A DNA stretch of 64,000 nt from the NCBI GenBank assembly GCA_964016885.1, contig OZ024742.1, forward strand, positions 282,410,001-282,474,000, given 5' to 3'. The notes under the pieces were generated by a model. It made no database searches. It was given only the letters and a program-made list of their open reading frames with translations, and was not told the DNA's origin. This document shows positions 8,585 to 56,201 of this stretch, piece by piece. Each line of letters starts with the position of its first letter. The first letter of the stretch is position 1. The translations under genes and the position numbers were made by a program. The DNA is from Eledone cirrhosa. Lineage: Eukaryota.

Positions 8585-9372
8585 TTCTAGTTTAAGCACA
8601 AGGGTACAAATTTATTGAAGAGGGATTTAGTTAACGAAATCGATCTCAGTATTTCATTGTTATTTGTATTACTCAACACTGGACTAATGATGAAAGGCAA
8701 ACTTGGATACGGCGAGATTTGAAATCGAAACGTAAAGAGCTGGAACAAATAATAGCTTCTTATATAGGCACAAGGCCAGCAATTTTGGGGGAGGGGAAAG
8801 TCGATTAAATCGACACCAGTGCATTACTGGTAGTTTATTTCATCGACCTCGTAAGGATGAAAGGCAAAATTAACCTCGGCGGGATTTGAATGCAGATCAT
8901 AAAGAGCCGTAACTCTATGCTGCAAAGCATAGCGTCCGACCCTCTACTGATACTGCCAATCCACCGCCAGCTGGAACAAATAATGATTTCTTATATAGGC
9001 ACAAGGCCAGCAATTTTGGGGGAGGGAAAAGTCGATTAAATCGACCCCAGGTGCTTTATTTTATCGACCCCGTAAGGATGAAAGGCAAAGTTAACCTCAG
9101 CGGGATGTGAACTCAGATCATAAAGGGCCGTAACTCTATGATGCAAAGCATGGTGTCTGACAATACTGCCAATCCACCGCCAGCTGAAACAAATAATTGT
9201 TTCTATTTTAGGCACAAAGCCAGCAATTACTGGTACTTTATTTTATCGACCCCGTAAGAATGAAAGGCAAAGTTATCCTCGGCGGGATTTGAACTCAGAA
9301 TGGCAAGGGCGGTAATTCTATGCGTCAAAGCATGGCATCCGACCCTCTACCGATACTGCCAATCCACCGCCC
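8585..9372 (-). mobile_element. Tandem cluster of about 4 units of the same tRNA-derived SINE, opposite orientation
   Basis: Reverse-complement units (ggatgaaaggcaaagttaacctcggcgggatttgaactcag...ctgccaatccaccgcc). Confidence 0.85.
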
Positions 9373-12858: not shown

Positions 12859-14505
12859 TACAAATATTAATAAAATAGATGTTCTTTTGAAATATACCTA
12901 CGGCACTTTAAAATCTAAAGTTTAAAACAGATTCAAACTTATATATAAATGTGAGTTTTTGGTGCGTTTTTGATCACTTATTTATAATATAATGTATTAT
13001 AATATGTATGTAATTATATATTATATTTTATATATTTTTAAATATACCCATCACATTTCTATATACATGATTCAAATATAGAGAAAATATCCAAACTAAA
13101 AATTATTATAGACATTATTTTGAACTCTGAATTATCCATGCACTTATTATTGTTTTTCTTATATATATGTATTTAAATGTAACACGTTGAACTCTATTTT
13201 ATAAAATTATAACCGTTATCATTTACTGCACCACTAATACCTAATATATATCTATATATACCTCCCTATATCTTCCTATACATAATTTTTAGTTAACTTC
13301 TAAATTTCTTGATTATGTATACTCTGAACTAAGAATAATTAATGCATTTACACCCAGTTATATATAGGTGTATATTTAATCTTAACATGCCTCAATCTAT
13401 TATTTTATTTTTATTCTCGTTATTATTTACCTAAAATATACTGGCTCATTAATATATATCTATATACATAATCGTTATTTAAATATTTCTACCAATAAAT
13501 ACTTCAGAAGCTTTACATACCTAATATGTTGGTATCTTCGTTAAAGAATAATTAATGCATTTACACCCAGTTATATATAGCTGTATATTTAATCTTAACA
13601 TGCCTCAATCTATTATTTTATTTTTATCTTCGTCGTTATTATTTACCTAAAATATACTGGCTCATTAATATATATCTATATACATAATCGTTATTTAAAT
13701 ATTTCTACCAATAAGTACTTCAAAAGCTTTACATACCTAATATGTTGGTATCTTTGTTAAAGTTTAAATTTAGGAAAATAATCAACAGTATAAAATGTCA
13801 TTTTTGATGCGCCAGCTAAATCCTTTAAATGTTACCCTCATAAAACTCAGAAGCTTAGAAAAGTTAACACACTTATAGAATTTATAAAACTAATATATAA
13901 ATAACCGGCAAAAAAATCCCGAAATCTTGATTCTTCACCTTAAAATTATAAATTAAATATTTTCAAAATTAACCGTTTAACTTTCTGGAAAAATCTCCTT
14001 CTGCATATATCACCCCCCCCCCCCTCCTTATCTTCCCCTCTCTATAAATCCTTTTCCAGGGGCTATCACTGGCTGTTATGATTCATGAGATGTTTTCATA
14101 GATAAATTGCAGTATCATACATTTTAAAATGTCTATAACTGTTACATTAAACAACGTTTTTCTTACTCATACATCCTCTATTGAATTTATTACGTTTTCG
14201 CATTTTCTCATAATTAGGGTATAAATGTTAAATTTTCTCTTAGGTTAATCACTACCTTGATTAAATCTTAACCATTTAACATCTCAGGGTATGTCATCTA
14301 TCATTATATTTTGTCTGATGAGGACGTACTGTTGTACATCCGAAATATGTATAATAAAATGTAATTGATCAAAAGAACATCTATTTTATTAATATTTGTA
14401 TTTTAATATTAATAACTCCGGAAAATTATTTTTCTTGTAGAGTGCTTCCAATCTACTGTAAAACTCATTCTTTGACATACTCATTGAATATTGTTTAACA
14501 CTTTA
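12852..14505 (+). mobile_element. AT-rich non-coding PLE-type remnant with short inverted 5' copy and 3' hammerhead
   Basis: 12852-12890 is the reverse complement of about 14369-14408; internal ~213-bp direct duplication (13331-13760); HHR at 14303; flanked by (TA)n. Confidence 0.55.
14303..14365 (+). ncRNA. Type I hammerhead ribozyme
   Basis: attatattttgt CTGATGA GGAcGTAC tgtt GTACaTCC GAAA tatgta TA ataaaatgtaat; 12-bp stem I. Confidence 0.8.
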
Positions 14506-17148: not shown

Positions 17149-18127
17149 TAACAGATCAAAGTTTAAGCAAAGAATCGTTGCTTTCACCCTTAATGGGATC
17201 TTCTGAAACTAATAAAGTCAATCTGTAAACGCAGAAGTGGATATTTCAAAAAACGTTGCAACCGGAGGAAGACAGGAAGACGATACTTTGGTTCGTGGAA
17301 ACGTTCGCTGGCAAAGAACGGGAAAAAACGAATATAATACGTCATTAATAGGAGCGGTGAAAAACAATTACGCGCAAAGACAGAACCACGTTTATGGTAT
17401 AAAAGAGGTCGTAGACTAATGTTCTGTTAGGTGGTTCATAGAGACGTTCTCTGGCAATGAACGAAAGAAACGAAGAATGGTATAAACAAAACATATACTG
17501 AGCTCCCACATCAAGACGAAAAATATTCACGTATAAATCGTACTATCCGTTAGGGTATAACGTGGGGCTGTAATACAGGAAAGTTTTGTGCAATTTATGT
17601 TTACAAGCCGAAATTGCCTCAGATCTTTTGTTTAAGATGTGGTCTGTGGCGTAGAGTATTTCCAGGGCCTCAGCGGCGCAGAGGTCACATCGTCTTTTAT
17701 TTCCGTTATACGATCCAGCCCTAGCTAGGATCTCCCAGTGTAACTTATATTGGGTGTGGTTGTCGTTTAGACTCCAGATATAAACGTGGTTCTGTCTTTG
17801 CGCGTAATTGTTTTTCACCGCTCCTATTAATGACGTATTATATTCGTTTTTTCCCGTTCTTTGCCAGCGAACGTTTCCACGAACCAAAGTATCGTCTTCC
17901 TGTCTTCCTCCGGTTGCAACGTTTTTTGAAATATCCACTTCTGCGTTTACAGATTGACTTTGTTAGTTTCAGAAGATCCCGTTAAGGGTGAAAGCAGCGA
18001 TTCTTTGCTTAAACTTTGATCTGTTATTTTAATAAATATTTGCTCTACGGTTCTTATATATTTGATATATATTTATCCTTATCGAGCCCTCTTTGGATTT
18101 TAGTCTTCAAATTTATTATTATTACTA
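17142..18127. mobile_element. Penelope-like element 3' remnant with inverted pLTR
   Basis: GIY-YIG C-terminus on - strand (YIWSL...HWEILARAGSY...CDLCAAE...LNKRSEAISACKH, 17543-17780); inverted arms about 17142-17394 / 17782-18033; HHR-like motifs at 17160-17210 (-) and 17965-18015 (+); TA flanks. Confidence 0.85.
17965..18015 (+). ncRNA. Hammerhead-like motif, U4A core variant (mirror copy 17160-17210 on -)
   Basis: agttt CAGAAGA tccc gttaa gggt GAAA gca gcgattctt tgc TT aaact. Confidence 0.55.
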
Positions 18128-32187: not shown

Positions 32188-32234
32188 AAATAAAATAAAT
32201 AAGTCAAATGTTTAAAATTTGGCTTCGTTTATTA

Positions 32235-32291
32235 CTGCTATATATATATATTTCGGTGACAGCCATCTTAGGCTGTGACCTCTTCAGGCAG
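32235..32291 (-). ncRNA. Type I hammerhead ribozyme with (TA)n stem III
   Basis: ctgc CTGAAGA ggtcacagcc taagat ggctgtcacc GAAA tatatatata TA gcag. Confidence 0.7.
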
Positions 32292-32399
32292 CCGAATTAT
32301 TGTGGTAGAGACGAGTACATATGTTGTTGAGATGTATAACTTTGTCAATACTCTGATATGCCCAGTTCCTGGTTGGGTTGTTATTTCACTGAGGAACTG

Positions 32400-35338
32400 G
32401 AATCATATGAATTCCTCTTGAAGCTGTACGGTGCAGCACTGCCGACAATATCCCAGTGCGTGGAGAAGCTGATGTTTAAGTCCTTTAGTGATGTGATGTA
32501 GTCCGCGAGTGAAGTGGATTGTCTTAGTTTTTTATTTGTGAAAGAGTGGAGATGTGTTCGAAACTTAATTTTGAGCGGGCCGGAGGTAGCCCCTATATAA
32601 TGTTTAACGCTATTGTGGCTAGTTACTGTGCATCTATATATAACCCTATCAGTCAAGCAGTATCCTCTAAGGGGCAGCGTCCTCTGTCGCGGCAGTTGCA
32701 ATTGCTGTCGCTGTTCCATCTATTTCCCATGGTAAGGCTATCATTGTTGCTGCCTAAGTTGTTACCTACGCTCCCGCAGCTGTCGTTAGCACCATTACAA
32801 GCCACAGCACGCGGAATGGTGCGATTATTATTCCGCAGGTCATGTCCTGCATGTTCCCCAGTCATTTCGCGGTTATGCTGGTTGCGTCTGCGGAGGCCGT
32901 TGCCAGCACTATTGGATGCTACTAGGGAGTTGTTAAGGCCGATATAGTTATTGTCAGGTGTAGGTGCGCCTGTGTCGAGGTGCTGTGTCTTGATGATCTT
33001 ACTGTGGTTCGTTGTTCCTATGATGTCTGCTAGGTTAGGAGTAGTAGAGAAGGATATTTTTATATTGTTCCCATTAAGAACTTTTCTATACCTATGGTTG
33101 GGCGGGAAGTTCTTCTCTAAGGCTTCGAAAAACATCCGGGGTACGTTGGAGGCCACACTCCGAGAGTAGGGGGTGGAACCATAGGACGTTACGGTGGCGA
33201 TTACGTGTCCTTGTACGTTTGCTACGGGTGGTTCCATCTAGGTGACCGCTCTTATGTGTGTTAATGCGCTGTAGCCCGTTAGGTGCCCCTTTCACTTTAT
33301 GCTCCGGTGCACTCTTCTTCCCTCTTCCAAGTTTATATACAGGAAGATGTTGGTTGGAAGGCGTTGGTAGTAGGCCGTCGCCTTTGTTGGTTTTGTAATA
33401 GGGGAATAGTTCGAGTAATCTACAGTGGTCACCGTCGTCGGGGTCGTGATCTTTAGTGCGATTATCTATTCTATTATATCCTACTTCAACGAGGTCGCCG
33501 CGTGATCGGTTATAGGTATGGATTACTATAACGTTCGTTTTATGAGGGAGGTGGTTTCTAGAGCTAGCGTTAGGGATGTAGGAAATTCCCCGGTTAAAAC
33601 TGGCGCTTATCAGGGCCCTATTGTAGTAATCTGCCGCTTGGTTGAAGATATCCTCATTGGCGGATAGCCTCGAGATTCTATGTGAGATTCTATAGACTAT
33701 GGAGTTGAGAGTCTGCTTAGGGTGGTTGGAGGCATAATTAATATAAGAGAGGCACTCTCCAGGCTTATGGTATGGCTTGTATAAGCCCGTACTCAACTCC
33801 TGGGTCACGTCCAGGAAGTTGACAACCTTGTGGTTGAGGTCCATAGTTACGGATAGGCCGAATGACTTGAAGAACCTGTGTATATGTTTGTTAAGGTTCT
33901 CTATCCTACGGGGGCTATGGTTCCTAACGGTAAACAGGGCGTTGTCCCTATATACACCTCCTTGTAGGGCCGGTATATCGTCCCAAGGCTTATGTAGGAG
34001 GTATATCCCGACCAGGTCAGTTGTTTGCGCTGAGTCACTGGTCTCCATCGTGACATCGAAGTTATCAGGACGGTTGGTTCTGGTACAGTGGGAGCCTTCG
34101 AACTGGATAATGGTTCTACGCGCCACTAGAACTATGTCTATTTCTTTTTTAGTGAGGCTAGTGTTGGATTTAGCTAAGATGAGTGCCTTATTTAAGAGTA
34201 TGGGGGAGATAGAGGCGTAGTAACTATCTATGTCAAACTGGATGAACTTCAGGGTCGCTTTATCCGGCAACTCGGTGAACCAATTTATGACCTGGTCGGT
34301 GTTGCCCCAGAGGCAGACCTTAGCCTTTCTATTAACTCCAGTAGTACTCTGTCGAGGATCACTTTACTAATCTTACCTATATCAGAGGTAGAGGGGTATA
34401 TTAGTCTAATAGAGGGGCTTTCATTAAAGTTACATTTGTGATCCTTAAGAGAGAATCTAAGCGTCAGAGGGACGTACGGGTTAGTGTACTTTTCTATTTC
34501 TAAGCTGGTGACTATATCCTTCCCTACTCTATTTATGTTATTTAGGGTACTAGAGGGTGTCTTTTGTAGTCTTTGTGTAGTTCCTTATAGATGAATTGTT
34601 TATACTTACTCGCGTCCATCTTGTACAGCTTTTTGGTTTTGTCGGAGGTGACGAAGAGGCGCGGGTCATTCTTGATTTTTGTTATTAGCGTATCAAGGGA
34701 CGTTAAGAATGGATTGCTGCATTGGTGTTTCTTTCTGAACTTAACGTTTTTGATCATTTTCAGCAGGTCCTCTTCAAAGGAGTCCAGTAAGGTGTTGTGC
34801 GGTGGGTTTCGGTATGTTTTGAAGCCATACCTTTCCTTGGGTTCAGGAAGGTTACGGGTGTTCTTATCCAGGTGGTAGGCCTTCCATCTGACTCTCCGTA
34901 TAAACGAGTTAGTAGCGTCTATAAGCAGTTTGAGGTAGGTTTTTTTGCTGGGTAAGGGGATACACTTGAAAGACATGGGTAACGGCTGGTTCTCCAACAT
35001 AATGGCAAATAAGGTGAGATACTCTACAAAAGGAGCACGGTGATACAGTATTTACGTGTCGAGAGAGAGAAAAAAAGGGGAGGATTGGTGATACATATAG
35101 TTATTTGCCAAGTAGCGTATGCCAAAGGTCCTCGATACTAGTGCCAGCAGTATTAAATATTCGAAGTGTTAATATTTAGTGGGCTAGAGAGTTAGCATAG
35201 CGTAAGCACGTGGGAAAGTAAGAAATCGGAGAATAGACCGTTAAAACATGTTTATTTAAAACAGCACCTACGTACGTTTCGCCCAGTTGGGCTTCTCAAG
35301 GGCATAAATAACAAAAAGTGTTCCTTACATTGCTCGGA
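32400..35338 (-). mobile_element. Penelope-like element, near full-length but frameshifted (RT + linker + GIY-YIG), preceded by HHR-bearing pLTR
   Basis: ATG 35000: KCIPLPS..Y..LI...FIRRVRWKA; RT motifs FDIDSYYASI, VTM.TSDSA, YRDN (for YRDD), FLDVT, YKPYHKP, SNHP; CNC..CPL..C and VIY...YIG endonuclease; HHR at 35264-35303. Confidence 0.9.
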
Positions 35339-35339
35339 A

Positions 35340-37136
35340 AGTGACCACTGTAGATTACTCGAACTATTCCCCTATTACAAAACTAACAAAGGCGACGGCC
35401 TACTACCAACGCCATCCAACCAACATCTTCCTGTACATAAACATGGAAGAGGGAAGAAGAGTGCACCCAAGCATAAAGTGAAAGGGGCACCTAACGGGCT
35501 ACGGCGCATTAACGCGCATAAGAGCGGTCACCTAGATGGAACCACCCGTAGCAAACGTACAAGGACACGTAATCGCCACCGTAACGTCCTATGGTTCCAC
35601 CCACCAATCTACTCTCGGAGTGTGGGCTCCAACGTACACCGGATGTTCTTCGAAGCCTTAGAGAAGAACTTCCCGCCCAACCATAGGTATAGAAAAATTC
35701 TTAATAGGAACAATATAAAAATATCCTTCTCTACTACTCCTAACCTAGCAGACATCATAGGAACAACGAACCACAGTAAGATCACCAAGACACAGCACCT
35801 CGACACAGGCGCACCTACACCTGACAATAACTATATCGGCCTTAACAACTCCCTAGCATCATCCAATAGTGCTGGCAACGGCCTCCGCAGACGCAACCAG
35901 CATAACCGCGAAATGACTGGGGAACATGCAGGACATGACGTGCGGAATAACAATCGCACCACCCCGCGTGCTGTGGGTTGTAATGGTGCTAACGACAGCT
36001 GCGGGAGCGTAGGTAACAACTTAGGCAGCAACAATGATAGCCATACCATGGGAAATAGATGGAACCGTGACAGAAATTGCAACTGCCGCGACAGAAGACG
36101 CTGCCCCTTAGAGGATACTGCTTGACTGATAGGGTTATATATAGATTCACTGTAACTAGCCACAATAGCGTTAAACATTATATAGGGGCTACCTCCGGCC
36201 CGCTCAAAATTAGGTTTCGAACACATCTCCACTCTTTCACAAATAAAAAACTAAGACACTCCACTTCATTCGCGGACTACATCACATCACTAAAGGACTT
36301 AAACATCAGCTTCTCCACACACTGGGATATTGTCGGCAGGGCTGCACCGTACAACTTCAAGAGGAATTGCGATCTTTGCCTCATGGAGATCTACCACATC
36401 ATAACTGCACCCCACGAGCTCATCAACAGCAGAGCTGAAACAGCGATCAGTTAGACACATCGCTAAAAAATATCCTTCTTCAGATGGGTTAAGGATGAGG
36501 AGTGAAACCTTTCACCGGATCTCCCTGCAACAAGTCTTAACACCCCGGCAGGCAGGCGCTGCAAAATAACACCCAGGAAACTAACCTTGCATACCAGACC
36601 CAGCCTCAAACGACTCAGACAAACAGATGCGAGAAAACAAACGTCTCAAAATAATCGTTAGTTACATGGTTCTGTGCGTATCGACAATGGTAAGGTTGTA
36701 ACCTCATCTTGTAGCGGATAAAAAATGTGTCCGGGAAAGACTGCCCTAACACCGGCCAGAGTTACCTCCCTTGACCTGCTGCAAAATCAAAACAAGCTAT
36801 TTTTTCGAGCAATGAACCTTGACGTGAATTTATCCCCAAAAACTCTTTCCGAGCAATGTAAAGAACACTTTTGGTTATTTATGCCCTTGAGAAGCCCAAC
36901 TGGGCGAAACGTACGTAGGTGCTGTTTTAAATAAACATGTTTTAACGGTCTATGCTCCGATTTCTTACTTTCCCACGTGCTTACGCTCTGCTAATTCCCT
37001 AGCCCACTAAATATTAACACTTCGAATATTTAATACTTCCAGCACTAGTATCGAGCACCTTTGGCATACGCTATTTGGCAAATAACTATATGTATCACCT
37101 GTCCTCCCCTTTTTTTTCTCTCTCGATACGTAAATA

Positions 37137-44949: not shown

Positions 44950-45536
44950 TGGCTTCTAATTTAGGCACAACGCCAACAATTTTGAGGTAAGGGGAAAGTC
45001 GATTAAATCAACTCCATTGCATTACTGGTACTTTATTTTATCGAACCCGTAAGGATGAAAGGCAAAGCTATAACCTCGGCGGAATTTGAACTCTATGGTG
45101 CAAACCGTTTTGTTCGACGTTCTACCAATTTCTGCCAATCCACCATCCTGGTAATAACTACAATAATAAATGTTTCTACTTTTGGCACAAGGCCAGCAAT
45201 AACCCAGTGCATTACTGGTACTTTATTTTATCGACCCTGTAAGGATGAACGGCAAAGTTAACCTCGGCGGGATTTGAACTCAGACCACAAAGGGCCGTAA
45301 CTCTTTGCTGCAAAGCATGGCGTCTGACCCTCTACCGATACTAATAATAATTGTTTCTACTTTTGGCACAAGGCCAGCAATTATCCCAGTGCATTACTGG
45401 TACTTTATTTTATCGACCCCGTAAGGATGAACGGCAAAGTTAACCTCGGCGGGATTTGAACTCAGAATGGCAAGGGCCGTAACTCTATGCGTCAAAAGAT
45501 GGTGTCCGACCCTCTACCGATACTGCCAATCCACCA
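44950..45536 (-). mobile_element. Three tandem tRNA-derived SINE units
   Basis: Repeated reverse-complement SINE unit as in 8585-9372. Confidence 0.85.
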
Positions 45537-53415: not shown

Positions 53416-53461
<46 letters not shown>

Positions 53462-53634
53462 CGTCCTTTCACGCACAAGGCGTCAAGGTACGCATGTATT
53501 GTCCAACCAAGTGCCAGTGTGGTTCAATGGCGGGTTAATAAATTAACGAGCCAGAACAAATATAAACAAGGTTTAGTAAATAATGAAAAAGTTTCAAAAT
53601 AAATTTTAAAAAATTGACTTTACCTACTATAGTT

Positions 53635-53718
53635 ACCTTTACCGATCGGTTTCGAATCCCAAAAATAAAACGTAGGCCATACGGCCCTCGTTGCAAAGAG
53701 AGATTCTCGTCAGAAGGT
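53635..53718 (-). ncRNA. Type I hammerhead, array unit L1 (also 54118-54201 and 54601-54684)
   Basis: acctt CTGACGA GAATCTC...GGGATTC GAAA CCGATCGG TA aaggt. Confidence 0.85.
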
Positions 53719-55012
53719 TCTTTTCATTCAAAGAATATAAAATTCCTGAATTTAAATCACAAACTAGCGCTATCAAAGACTGTTCCTGGGATGAGAGTGG
53801 ATGATGTAGAACAGGTTTATCAAGGGCCGTAGTAAAGATAGAGGCAAAAGGAGGTAGGTCGAACTAGCCACCGCTGTTATCAGCAGCAGTCGGAATGACC
53901 CGGTTTGTTCTCAACGTATGTGGAGGTAGTAGTAATATGAAATACGTCCTTTCACGCACAAGGCGTCAAGGTACGCATGTATTGTCCAACCAAGTGCCAG
54001 TGTGGTTCAATGGCGGGTTAATAAATTAACGAGCCAGAACAAATATAAACAAGGTTTAGTAAATAATGAAAAAGTTTCAAAATAAATTTTAAAAAATTGA
54101 CTTTACCTACTATAGTTACCTTTACCGATCGGTTTCGAATCCCAAAAATAAAACGTAGGCCATACGGCCCTCGTTGCAAAGAGAGATTCTCGTCAGAAGG
54201 TTCTTTTCATTCAAAGAATATAAAATTCCTGAATTTAAATCACAAACTAGCGCTATCAAAGACTGTTCCTGGGATGAGAGTGGATGATGTAGAACAGGTT
54301 TATCAAGGGCCGTAGTAAAGATAGAGGCAAAAGGAGGTAGGTCGAACTAGCCACCGCTGTTATCAGCAGCAGTCGGAATGACCCGGTTTGTTCTCAACGT
54401 ATGTGGAGGTAGTAGTAATATGAAATACGTCCTTTCACGCACAAGGCGTCAAGGTACGCATGTATTGTCCAACCAAGTGCCAGTGTGGTTCAATGGCGGG
54501 TTAATAAATTAACGAGCCAGAACAAATATAAACAAGGTTTAGTAAATAATGAAAAAGTTTCAAAATAAATTTTAAAAAATTGACTTTACCTACTATAGTT
54601 ACCTTTACCGATCGGTTTCGAATCCCAAAAATAAAACGTAGGCCATACGGCCCTCGTTGCAAAGAGAGATTCTCGTCAGAAGGTTCTTTTCATTCAAAGA
54701 ATATAAAATTCCTGAATTTAAATCACAAACTAGCGCTATCAAAGACTGTTCCTGGGATGAGAGTGGATGATGTAGAACAGGTTTATCAAGGGCCGTAGTA
54801 AAGATAGACACATACGTTGAGAACAAACCGGGTCATTCCGACTGCTGCTGATAACAGCGGTGGCTAGTTCGACCTACCTCCTTTTGCCTCTATCTTTACT
54901 ACGGCCCTTGATAAACCTGTTCTACATCATCCACTCTCATCCCAGGAACAGTCTTTGATAGCGCTAGTTTGTGATTTAAATTCAGGAATTTTATATTCTT
55001 TGAATGAAAAGA

Positions 55013-55096
55013 ACCTTCTGACGAGAATCTCTCTTTGCAACGAGGGCCGTATGGCCTACGTTTTATTTTTGGGATTCGAAACCGATCGGTAAAGGT
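55013..55096 (+). ncRNA. Type I hammerhead, array unit R1 (also 55496-55579 and 55979-56062)
   Basis: Canonical core, 5-bp stem I, 7-bp stem II with internal ggcc gtat ggcc hairpin, palindromic ACCGATCGGT stem III, GUA cleavage triplet. Confidence 0.88.
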
Positions 55097-56129
55097 AACT
55101 ATAGTAGGTAAAGTCAATTTTTTAAAATTTATTTTGAAACTTTTTCATTATTTACTAAACCTTGTTTATATTTGTTCTGGCTCGTTAATTTATTAACCCG
55201 CCATTGAACCACACTGGCACTTGGTTGGACAATACATGCGTACCTTGACGCCTTGTGCGTGAAAGGACGTATTTCATATTACTACTACCTCCACATACGT
55301 TGAGAACAAACCGGGTCATTCCGACTGCTGCTGATAACAGCGGTGGCTAGTTCGACCTACCTCCTTTTGCCTCTATCTTTACTACGGCCCTTGATAAACC
55401 TGTTCTACATCATCCACTCTCATCCCAGGAACAGTCTTTGATAGCGCTAGTTTGTGATTTAAATTCAGGAATTTTATATTCTTTGAATGAAAAGAACCTT
55501 CTGACGAGAATCTCTCTTTGCAACGAGGGCCGTATGGCCTACGTTTTATTTTTGGGATTCGAAACCGATCGGTAAAGGTAACTATAGTAGGTAAAGTCAA
55601 TTTTTTAAAATTTATTTTGAAACTTTTTCATTATTTACTAAACCTTGTTTATATTTGTTCTGGCTCGTTAATTTATTAACCCGCCATTGAACCACACTGG
55701 CACTTGGTTGGACAATACATGCGTACCTTGACGCCTTGTGCGTGAAAGGACGTATTTCATATTACTACTACCTCCACATACGTTGAGAACAAACCGGGTC
55801 ATTCCGACTGCTGCTGATAACAGCGGTGGCTAGTTCGACCTACCTCCTTTTGCCTCTATCTTTACTACGGCCCTTGATAAACCTGTTCTACATCATCCAC
55901 TCTCATCCCAGGAACAGTCTTTGATAGCGCTAGTTTGTGATTTAAATTCAGGAATTTTATATTCTTTGAATGAAAAGAACCTTCTGACGAGAATCTCTCT
56001 TTGCAACGAGGGCCGTATGGCCTACGTTTTATTTTTGGGATTCGAAACCGATCGGTAAAGGTAACTATAGTAGGTAAAGTCAATTTTTTAAAATTTATTT
56101 TGAAACTTTTTCATTATTTACTAAACCTT

Positions 56130-56201
<72 letters not shown>

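Follow-up and report, generated by a model that had tools for sequence, protein, structure and literature searches.

A 483-nt hammerhead repeat of Eledone cirrhosa forms head-to-head arrays with two fixed 3′ ends: a putative PLE-mobilised retrozyme

Background

Animal retrozymes, together with their expression and circular RNAs, have been described by Cervera and de la Pena (2020; PMC7229834), who proposed, without showing it, that the circles are reverse transcribed by PLEs; the step from circle to DNA is presented there as a hypothesis, and the main text of that paper does not contain the word 'inverted'. A later report (Li, Clavereau and Pollet 2026; 10.64898/2026.07.22.740005) tied retrozymes to the pLTRs of PLEs and favoured local tandem amplification, with one of nine Xenopus dimers cleaved in vitro.

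For PLEs themselves, the account of Craig et al. (2021; PMC8557442) includes insertion into (TA)n for Hydra, Neptune and Naiad, inverted 5′-truncated copies, a tail of 30–40 bp that is often one-ended and is already drawn at one end only, and non-autonomous multi-copy derivatives for Chlamys (MRC1). The mechanism is called open in that account, as is the origin of tandem, inverted and tailed insertions, although self-priming had been proposed for PLE inversions (PMC3846280). In the Poseidon element PAc of anole (Frangieh et al. 2024; PMC11167929), two internal reverse transcriptase (RT) starts define the tail in vitro, AT-rich DNA is cut, and extended, on both strands, and a dimer is predicted; the start sites are alike on both strands and have no homology to the target, the hammerhead is dispensable and uncleaved RNA is used.

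The repeat reported here, from Eledone cirrhosa, shares with animal non-LTR retrozymes non-coding tandem units with one type I hammerhead each, a GC content below 45% (191 of 483 nt), dispersal, co-occurrence with PLEs and circles as proposed RT templates. It differs, as far as the cited descriptions go, in being arranged mostly as pairs of head-to-head arrays with two fixed 3′ ends, and the expression and circles shown for the animal retrozymes are predicted for the Eledone repeat. Hydra-clade PLEs, in the account cited above, have the same (TA)n targets, 5′ truncation, adjacent inverted truncated copy, one-ended tail and hammerheads, but the Eledone repeat is without an ORF, its tail is 108 nt rather than 30–40 long, and its inverted part can be a multi-unit array. 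PAc, as published, likewise has two start sites, two-strand cutting and a predicted dimer; in Eledone, by contrast, the sites are used one per arm and match the target over a few AU letters, and the hammerhead is constrained.

Results

Architecture of the locus

The window, i.e. the whole stretch of DNA analysed, comprises 64,000 nt of contig OZ024742.1 (assembly GCA_964016885.1, positions 282,410,001 to 282,474,000, forward strand). Monomer positions are counted from the base following the predicted hammerhead cut (window 55092), with the predicted 483-nt cut-to-cut monomer at 55092..55574 (+) as reference. Two oppositely oriented arrays of a 483-bp unit, which a first-pass annotation had placed on either side of 54808/54809 (2.8 and 2.75 units), were confirmed in the assembly. 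The left arm (53452..54808, −) is 100% periodic with a period of 483 nt, and its 2.81 units extend from monomer position 281 to 188, the outer 3′ end being a fixed site designated B; the right arm (54809..56137, +) holds 2.75 units in inverted orientation, from monomer position 201 to 80, and its outer 3′ end is a second fixed site, A. The head-to-head junction (54808..54809) is blunt, with neither microhomology nor insertion, and the (TA)n target microsatellites annotated earlier are present on both sides, at 53425..53455 and 56133..56200.

Perfect mirror arms, previously put at about 1.25 kb, measured 1249 nt each (53560–54808 and 54889–56137). They surround an 80-nt stretch (54809–54888) that had been called a spacer; it is no more than the distance by which the truncation points of the two arms, which are independent of each other, are offset. 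At the left end, 108 nt without a mirror (53452..53559, −), present on the left arm only, reach from site A to site B and represent the PLE-type tail between these ends. Units are plain tandem copies without LTR structure. As annotated, the unit has no credible ORF: its longest stop-to-stop frame is 81 aa, it gave no tblastn match to four PLE protein fragments from the window, and it contains no RT + GIY-YIG ORF of the kind that defines an autonomous PLE.

No record bridged 54808/54809 in four other sequencing runs, which mostly carry other family variants and may lack the insertion, and this junction was likewise absent from the independent contigs and RAD reads searched. The window copy therefore rests on the assembly, and the architecture on 59 head-to-head elements. 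Such an absence would suit an assembly fold-back chimera, or a DNA-level satellite that never passed through RNA, but both are extremely improbable given that the same architecture recurs in those 59 elements, on many contigs, with different flanks and junctions and with fixed A and B ends, and recurs again in four related families. One other locus (L031, G000:C5:14477992-14479923) has exactly the haplotype of the window and is a possible sibling or source of this copy.

A dispersed family and its relatives

A search of the species' own genome returned 1637 candidates, the best 40 of which scored at 98–100% identity. Genome-wide counts of exact patterns yielded 1236 hammerhead 3′ ends (22-mers), 249 end-A junctions and 30 matches to one form of the end-B junction, pointing to several hundred loci. 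One hundred loci were taken for analysis (40 best matches, 40 first-listed end-A matches and 20 first-listed hammerhead matches), and these contained 104 elements. Judged by these matches, the repeat is a dispersed, young, non-coding family with a 483-nt monomer. A contig filed under another organism label carried 513 nt of it with 10 differences.

Related ORF-less families, at least three beyond the main one, include a ~74%-identical sister with ~1800 candidates, and others of 485 nt, ~477–484 nt and 557 nt. These families, all with a hammerhead (L044:4643-6059, L059:4640-5440, L068:4988-7270, L124:4300-5250 and L161–L190), have two fixed ends as well, and a hairpin resembling that of the main family follows site A. 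Two ends ~70–110 nt apart were also seen in the 74% sister, the 485-nt and the 557-nt families, as well as in GIY-YIG-linked elements, where the spacing was 72–91 nt.

The hammerhead motif

The motif at 55013..55096 (+), with its cut predicted after 55091, is one of six at the locus. Its stem I has 5 bp and is followed by the CUGACGA core, a long stem II and GAAA; stem III, of 3 bp and with a palindromic loop, precedes GUA. Three cuts are predicted per arm, after 55091, 55574 and 56057 on the plus strand and at 54605/6, 54122/3 and 53639/40 on the minus strand, and every unit carries one type I hammerhead, as the first-pass annotation had stated. Neither the whole window, at the gathering level, nor the unit, at E ≤ 10, matched an Rfam family; the ribozyme call consequently rests on the core motif, the stems, covariation and constraint.

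Eight of 13 stem pairs changed on both sides in an alignment of eight related hammerheads, and 94.9% of cells paired, a result that is partly circular because four of the eight rows came from a scan that required pairing. The hammerhead fold lies within 2.1 kcal/mol of the best predicted fold. Locus-fixed variants occurred at 0 of 22 hammerhead sites (those outside our own search patterns, hence unbiased) compared with 97 of 416 other sites (p = 0.006), and single-unit mutations in 41 hammerhead sites were about as frequent as expected (7 of 99). By this distribution of variants the hammerhead is under constraint, which suggests that cleavage matters for spread. By analogy with the dimeric hammerheads with palindromic stem III reported in PMC4209133, the Eledone hammerhead, with its 3-bp stem III and palindromic loop, may act as a dimer.

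Outer ends are fixed and paired

Throughout the sample, outer 3′ ends fell at two sites 108 nt apart, A at monomer position 76–84 (~80) and B at 186–196, each finishing in a short stretch of alternating A and T that runs into the (TA)n of the target. Of the 104 elements, 59 were head-to-head, with variable 5′ truncation and an adjacent inverted copy. Fifty-three of them combined A with B, two were A+A, none was B+B and four had one end that BLAST could not place; (TA)n was found on both sides in 55. Within the best-match set, picked without regard to ends, the combination was A+B in 27 of 27 cases. Independent choice of site allows at most 50% A+B. The remaining one-armed elements (43 of 104, 18 of which had been selected for end A) ended at A in 34 cases, at B in seven and elsewhere in two. 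The arms had earlier been described as differently permuted: inner junctions do vary between loci, but with outer ends fixed at A and B (53 of 59 being A+B) free permutation holds for the inner ends only.

The tail is predicted to fold into two hairpins, each next to one of the sites: hairpin 1 (55174..55209, +) directly 3′ of site A, and hairpin 2 (55236..55272, +) directly 5′ of site B. Hairpin 1 did not vary in sequence among the 13 tails aligned, which came from three families, and therefore provides no covariation evidence, and hairpin 2 shows some compensatory changes across families. To judge from their layout, the fixed paired ends are the 'tail' signature of PLEs, here longer and almost strictly paired.

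Inner ends are independent between arms

Other loci across the genome had been expected to differ in their junction points, and the inner junction was indeed different each time. Inner ends of the two arms lay within 30 nt of each other in 7 of 54 pairs (6.8 expected), and their offset was uniform (KS p = 0.90). The arms shared no monomer position in 4 of 54 pairs, and neither contained the other in 6 of 54. Arm lengths were uncorrelated (rho = −0.17), with either arm able to be the longer, and both arms exceeded one unit in 13 of 53 A+B elements. In a rival reading, fold-back, self-priming or switching to the nascent cDNA would produce the inverted arm, as has been proposed for PLE inverted repeats (PMC3846280), and endonuclease trimming the tail. 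A few junctions do sit at palindromic spots (L043, L065, L088), and single loci may have formed in this way, but the uniform offsets, the uncorrelated lengths and the pairs without any shared position argue that one arm is not a fold-back of its partner; as a general route, fold-back is largely refuted, and we consider it very improbable as the explanation of the family.

Microhomology at the junctions was mild, averaging 1.5 nt over 34 junctions where chance predicts 0.68 nt, and inserted letters were present in 16 of 50 parsed junctions, some of these being parsing artefacts. B arms ending just before site A were noted in 6 of 54 cases (p = 0.007, post hoc), which is suggestive only. In elements at two loci (L089 and L093) an arm contained an additional jump on the same strand, a sign that the template was occasionally switched.

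L1 twin priming is a further point of comparison. There, both target strands prime on one RNA to give a head-to-head product with microhomology at the joins, the choice of the second site is opportunistic and there is hardly any overlap between the arms. The product and the proposed use of both target strands on one RNA are the same in the Eledone repeat, but its second site is fixed and its arms usually copy the same sequence.

Unit variants point to a monomeric template

Twenty-two haplotypes were distinguished among 44 young loci, each locus having a single haplotype in its two arms and nearly identical units. Substitutions within a locus were confined to one unit in 95 of 99 cases, and in 29 of 35 loci the partner arm was at least as close as any other arm sampled (16 without any difference). 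Four variants private to the sample were counted genome-wide by exact 24-mer, a count that misses copies with a second change. The variant of L065 had four matches, all in L065, and that of L062 three, all in L062, in both cases in both arms and in every unit; the variant of L047 had three, all in the single arm of that locus and again in every unit, and the fourth proved to be a subfamily marker with 74 matches. For a new variant to reach all the units in both arms, a bottleneck of one monomer followed by amplification is needed. This supports a monomeric, likely circular template, in line with the first-pass proposal of an RT running around a 483-nt circRNA, although a source locus absent from the assembly, or gene conversion after insertion, could also produce a locus-unique variant. 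An A-to-I editing signature was not seen among locus-fixed variants (A>G 5 of 45, T>C 9 of 45). Monomer positions 157, 205, 262 and 436 vary in young haplotypes; the alleles at 157 and 436 are found in all four combinations, which implies that mutations recurred or that templates recombined.

Read-through of the cut site occurred without an indel in 265 of 265 cases, as is more readily expected of a ligated circle than of end-to-end jumps. A cut linear monomer from whose 5′ end the RT jumps repeatedly to the 3′ end would mimic a circle; it would impose the same monomer bottleneck, and some arms do stop at or near the cut. Jumps of this kind by retroelement RTs are, however, usually imprecise, and with no base gained or lost at any of the crossings we hold this route to be distinctly improbable.

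A different linear template would be a long uncleaved multimer transcribed from a source array and primed by a PLE at two sites, its copies being homogenised or extended later by gene conversion and unequal crossing-over. Unprocessed RNA serves as the anole PLE's main substrate in vitro (PMC11167929), eight of the nine Xenopus retrozyme dimers remained uncut (10.64898/2026.07.22.740005), and precise read-through of the cut site is expected from such a template as well. Partly cut linear templates also predict the clustering of 5′ ends near the cut, at monomer 479–1 (11 of 155 BLAST ends, the top 6-nt window). As a signal of the cut this pile-up was set aside as weak, since an exact parse, which failed at some loci with nearby mismatches, could reconcile only one of 100 arms with the cut itself; the cluster may come from stalling of the RT at stem III. 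Against the multimer stand the assembly-unique variants fixed in all units of both arms, the rarity of unit differences that two units at one locus have in common (4 of 99), the inability of a truncating RT alone to rebuild arrays of 9–10 units, and the hammerhead constraint with its implication that cleavage matters for spread. On balance this explanation is unlikely, and the template was likely a monomer read repeatedly, for which the unit variants and clean read-throughs predict a circular form.

Candidate helper elements

Searching the genome with the PLE RT of the window gave ~43,000 candidate matches, some in frames of 928–979 aa. By eye, the frames at L160, L147 and L133 carry RWK, DKT, a CxCX5C linker and, C-terminally, GIY-YIG, motifs by which PMC8557442 delimits the Hydra clade, a clade with (TA)n as its target. 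On these motifs, the likely helper class is that of Hydra-type PLEs with long open frames. Set against the few additional Hydra families outside cnidarians given in the same paper, ~43,000 RT candidates look like a very large Hydra expansion. The exact helper was not found: the unit was joined to a PLE frame at 0 of 100 sampled loci, and no pLTR kin of the unit was present in 21 GIY-YIG downstream regions, a small sample of the ~43,000 candidates, or in the sampled loci. The 74%-identical sister, considered as a helper, proved to be another ORF-less repeat, and Pfam returned no family for the four PLE fragments of the window.

Several other features were observed in the window. A broken and rearranged head-to-head Hydra-type PLE with RT and GIY-YIG fragments lies between (TA)n tracts at 32400–37120, its left end apparently fused, near 32200–32300, to another family's hammerhead end. 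Further hammerhead-bearing PLE-type ends are located at 14310, 18250 (−), 23121 and 32048, and a GIY-YIG fragment at 17543–17962 (−). Tandem copies of a SINE-like repeat, presumably one known from octopus genomes, lie at 8738–9228 and 45162–45524.

Discussion

The first-pass annotation had proposed a retrozyme-type non-autonomous element linked to PLEs and primed from both sides of a cut TA site, and both parts are supported by the present data. The paired ends, the (TA)n targets and the unit structure make it highly probable that the family is a PLE-mobilised retrozyme with two fixed starts. The complete model, in which a Hydra-type PLE primes from both cut (TA)n strands on one circular monomer, we regard as reasonably probable. 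Arrays would be transcribed and would cut themselves into 483-nt monomers, to be ligated into circles as in other animal retrozymes (PMC7229834). A PLE protein, probably a dimer, would bind the two-hairpin tail region and nick both strands of (TA)n; one 3′ end would start at A and the other at B, each aided by a match of 4–5 nt of AU. Each RT would then travel 0.1 to 10 turns around the template, displacing earlier cDNA, and the two cDNA ends would be end-joined with little or no microhomology. More tentatively, and as a conjecture that could well fail, the RT dimer may grip one circular RNA at two programmed sites ~100 nt apart, one per nicked strand, and roll both cDNAs around this same circle.

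The component parts are known, and the repeat is a variant of known animal retrozymes. Not found in print, in a literature search of mainly open-access main texts, are the near-strict rule of one site per arm, the ~100-nt tail and the shared locus-unique variants; the search likewise gave no octopus retrozymes.

The family offers hundreds of young, haplotype-tagged insertions with two exact starts and a substrate of 483 nt, and candidate helper frames are present in its own genome. The origin of tailed and inverted PLE insertions and the passage from circle to DNA thereby become testable by computation and in vitro, and a rolling RT that primes on two strands would be of interest as a DNA-writing enzyme. 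If the two-site model is true, the tails of PLEs, head-to-head inversions and the tandem arrays of retrozymes would all follow from a single rule, and the locus-unique variants that the two arms have in common would show directly, at the genomic level, that animal circRNA is written back into chromosomes by rolling-circle target-primed reverse transcription.
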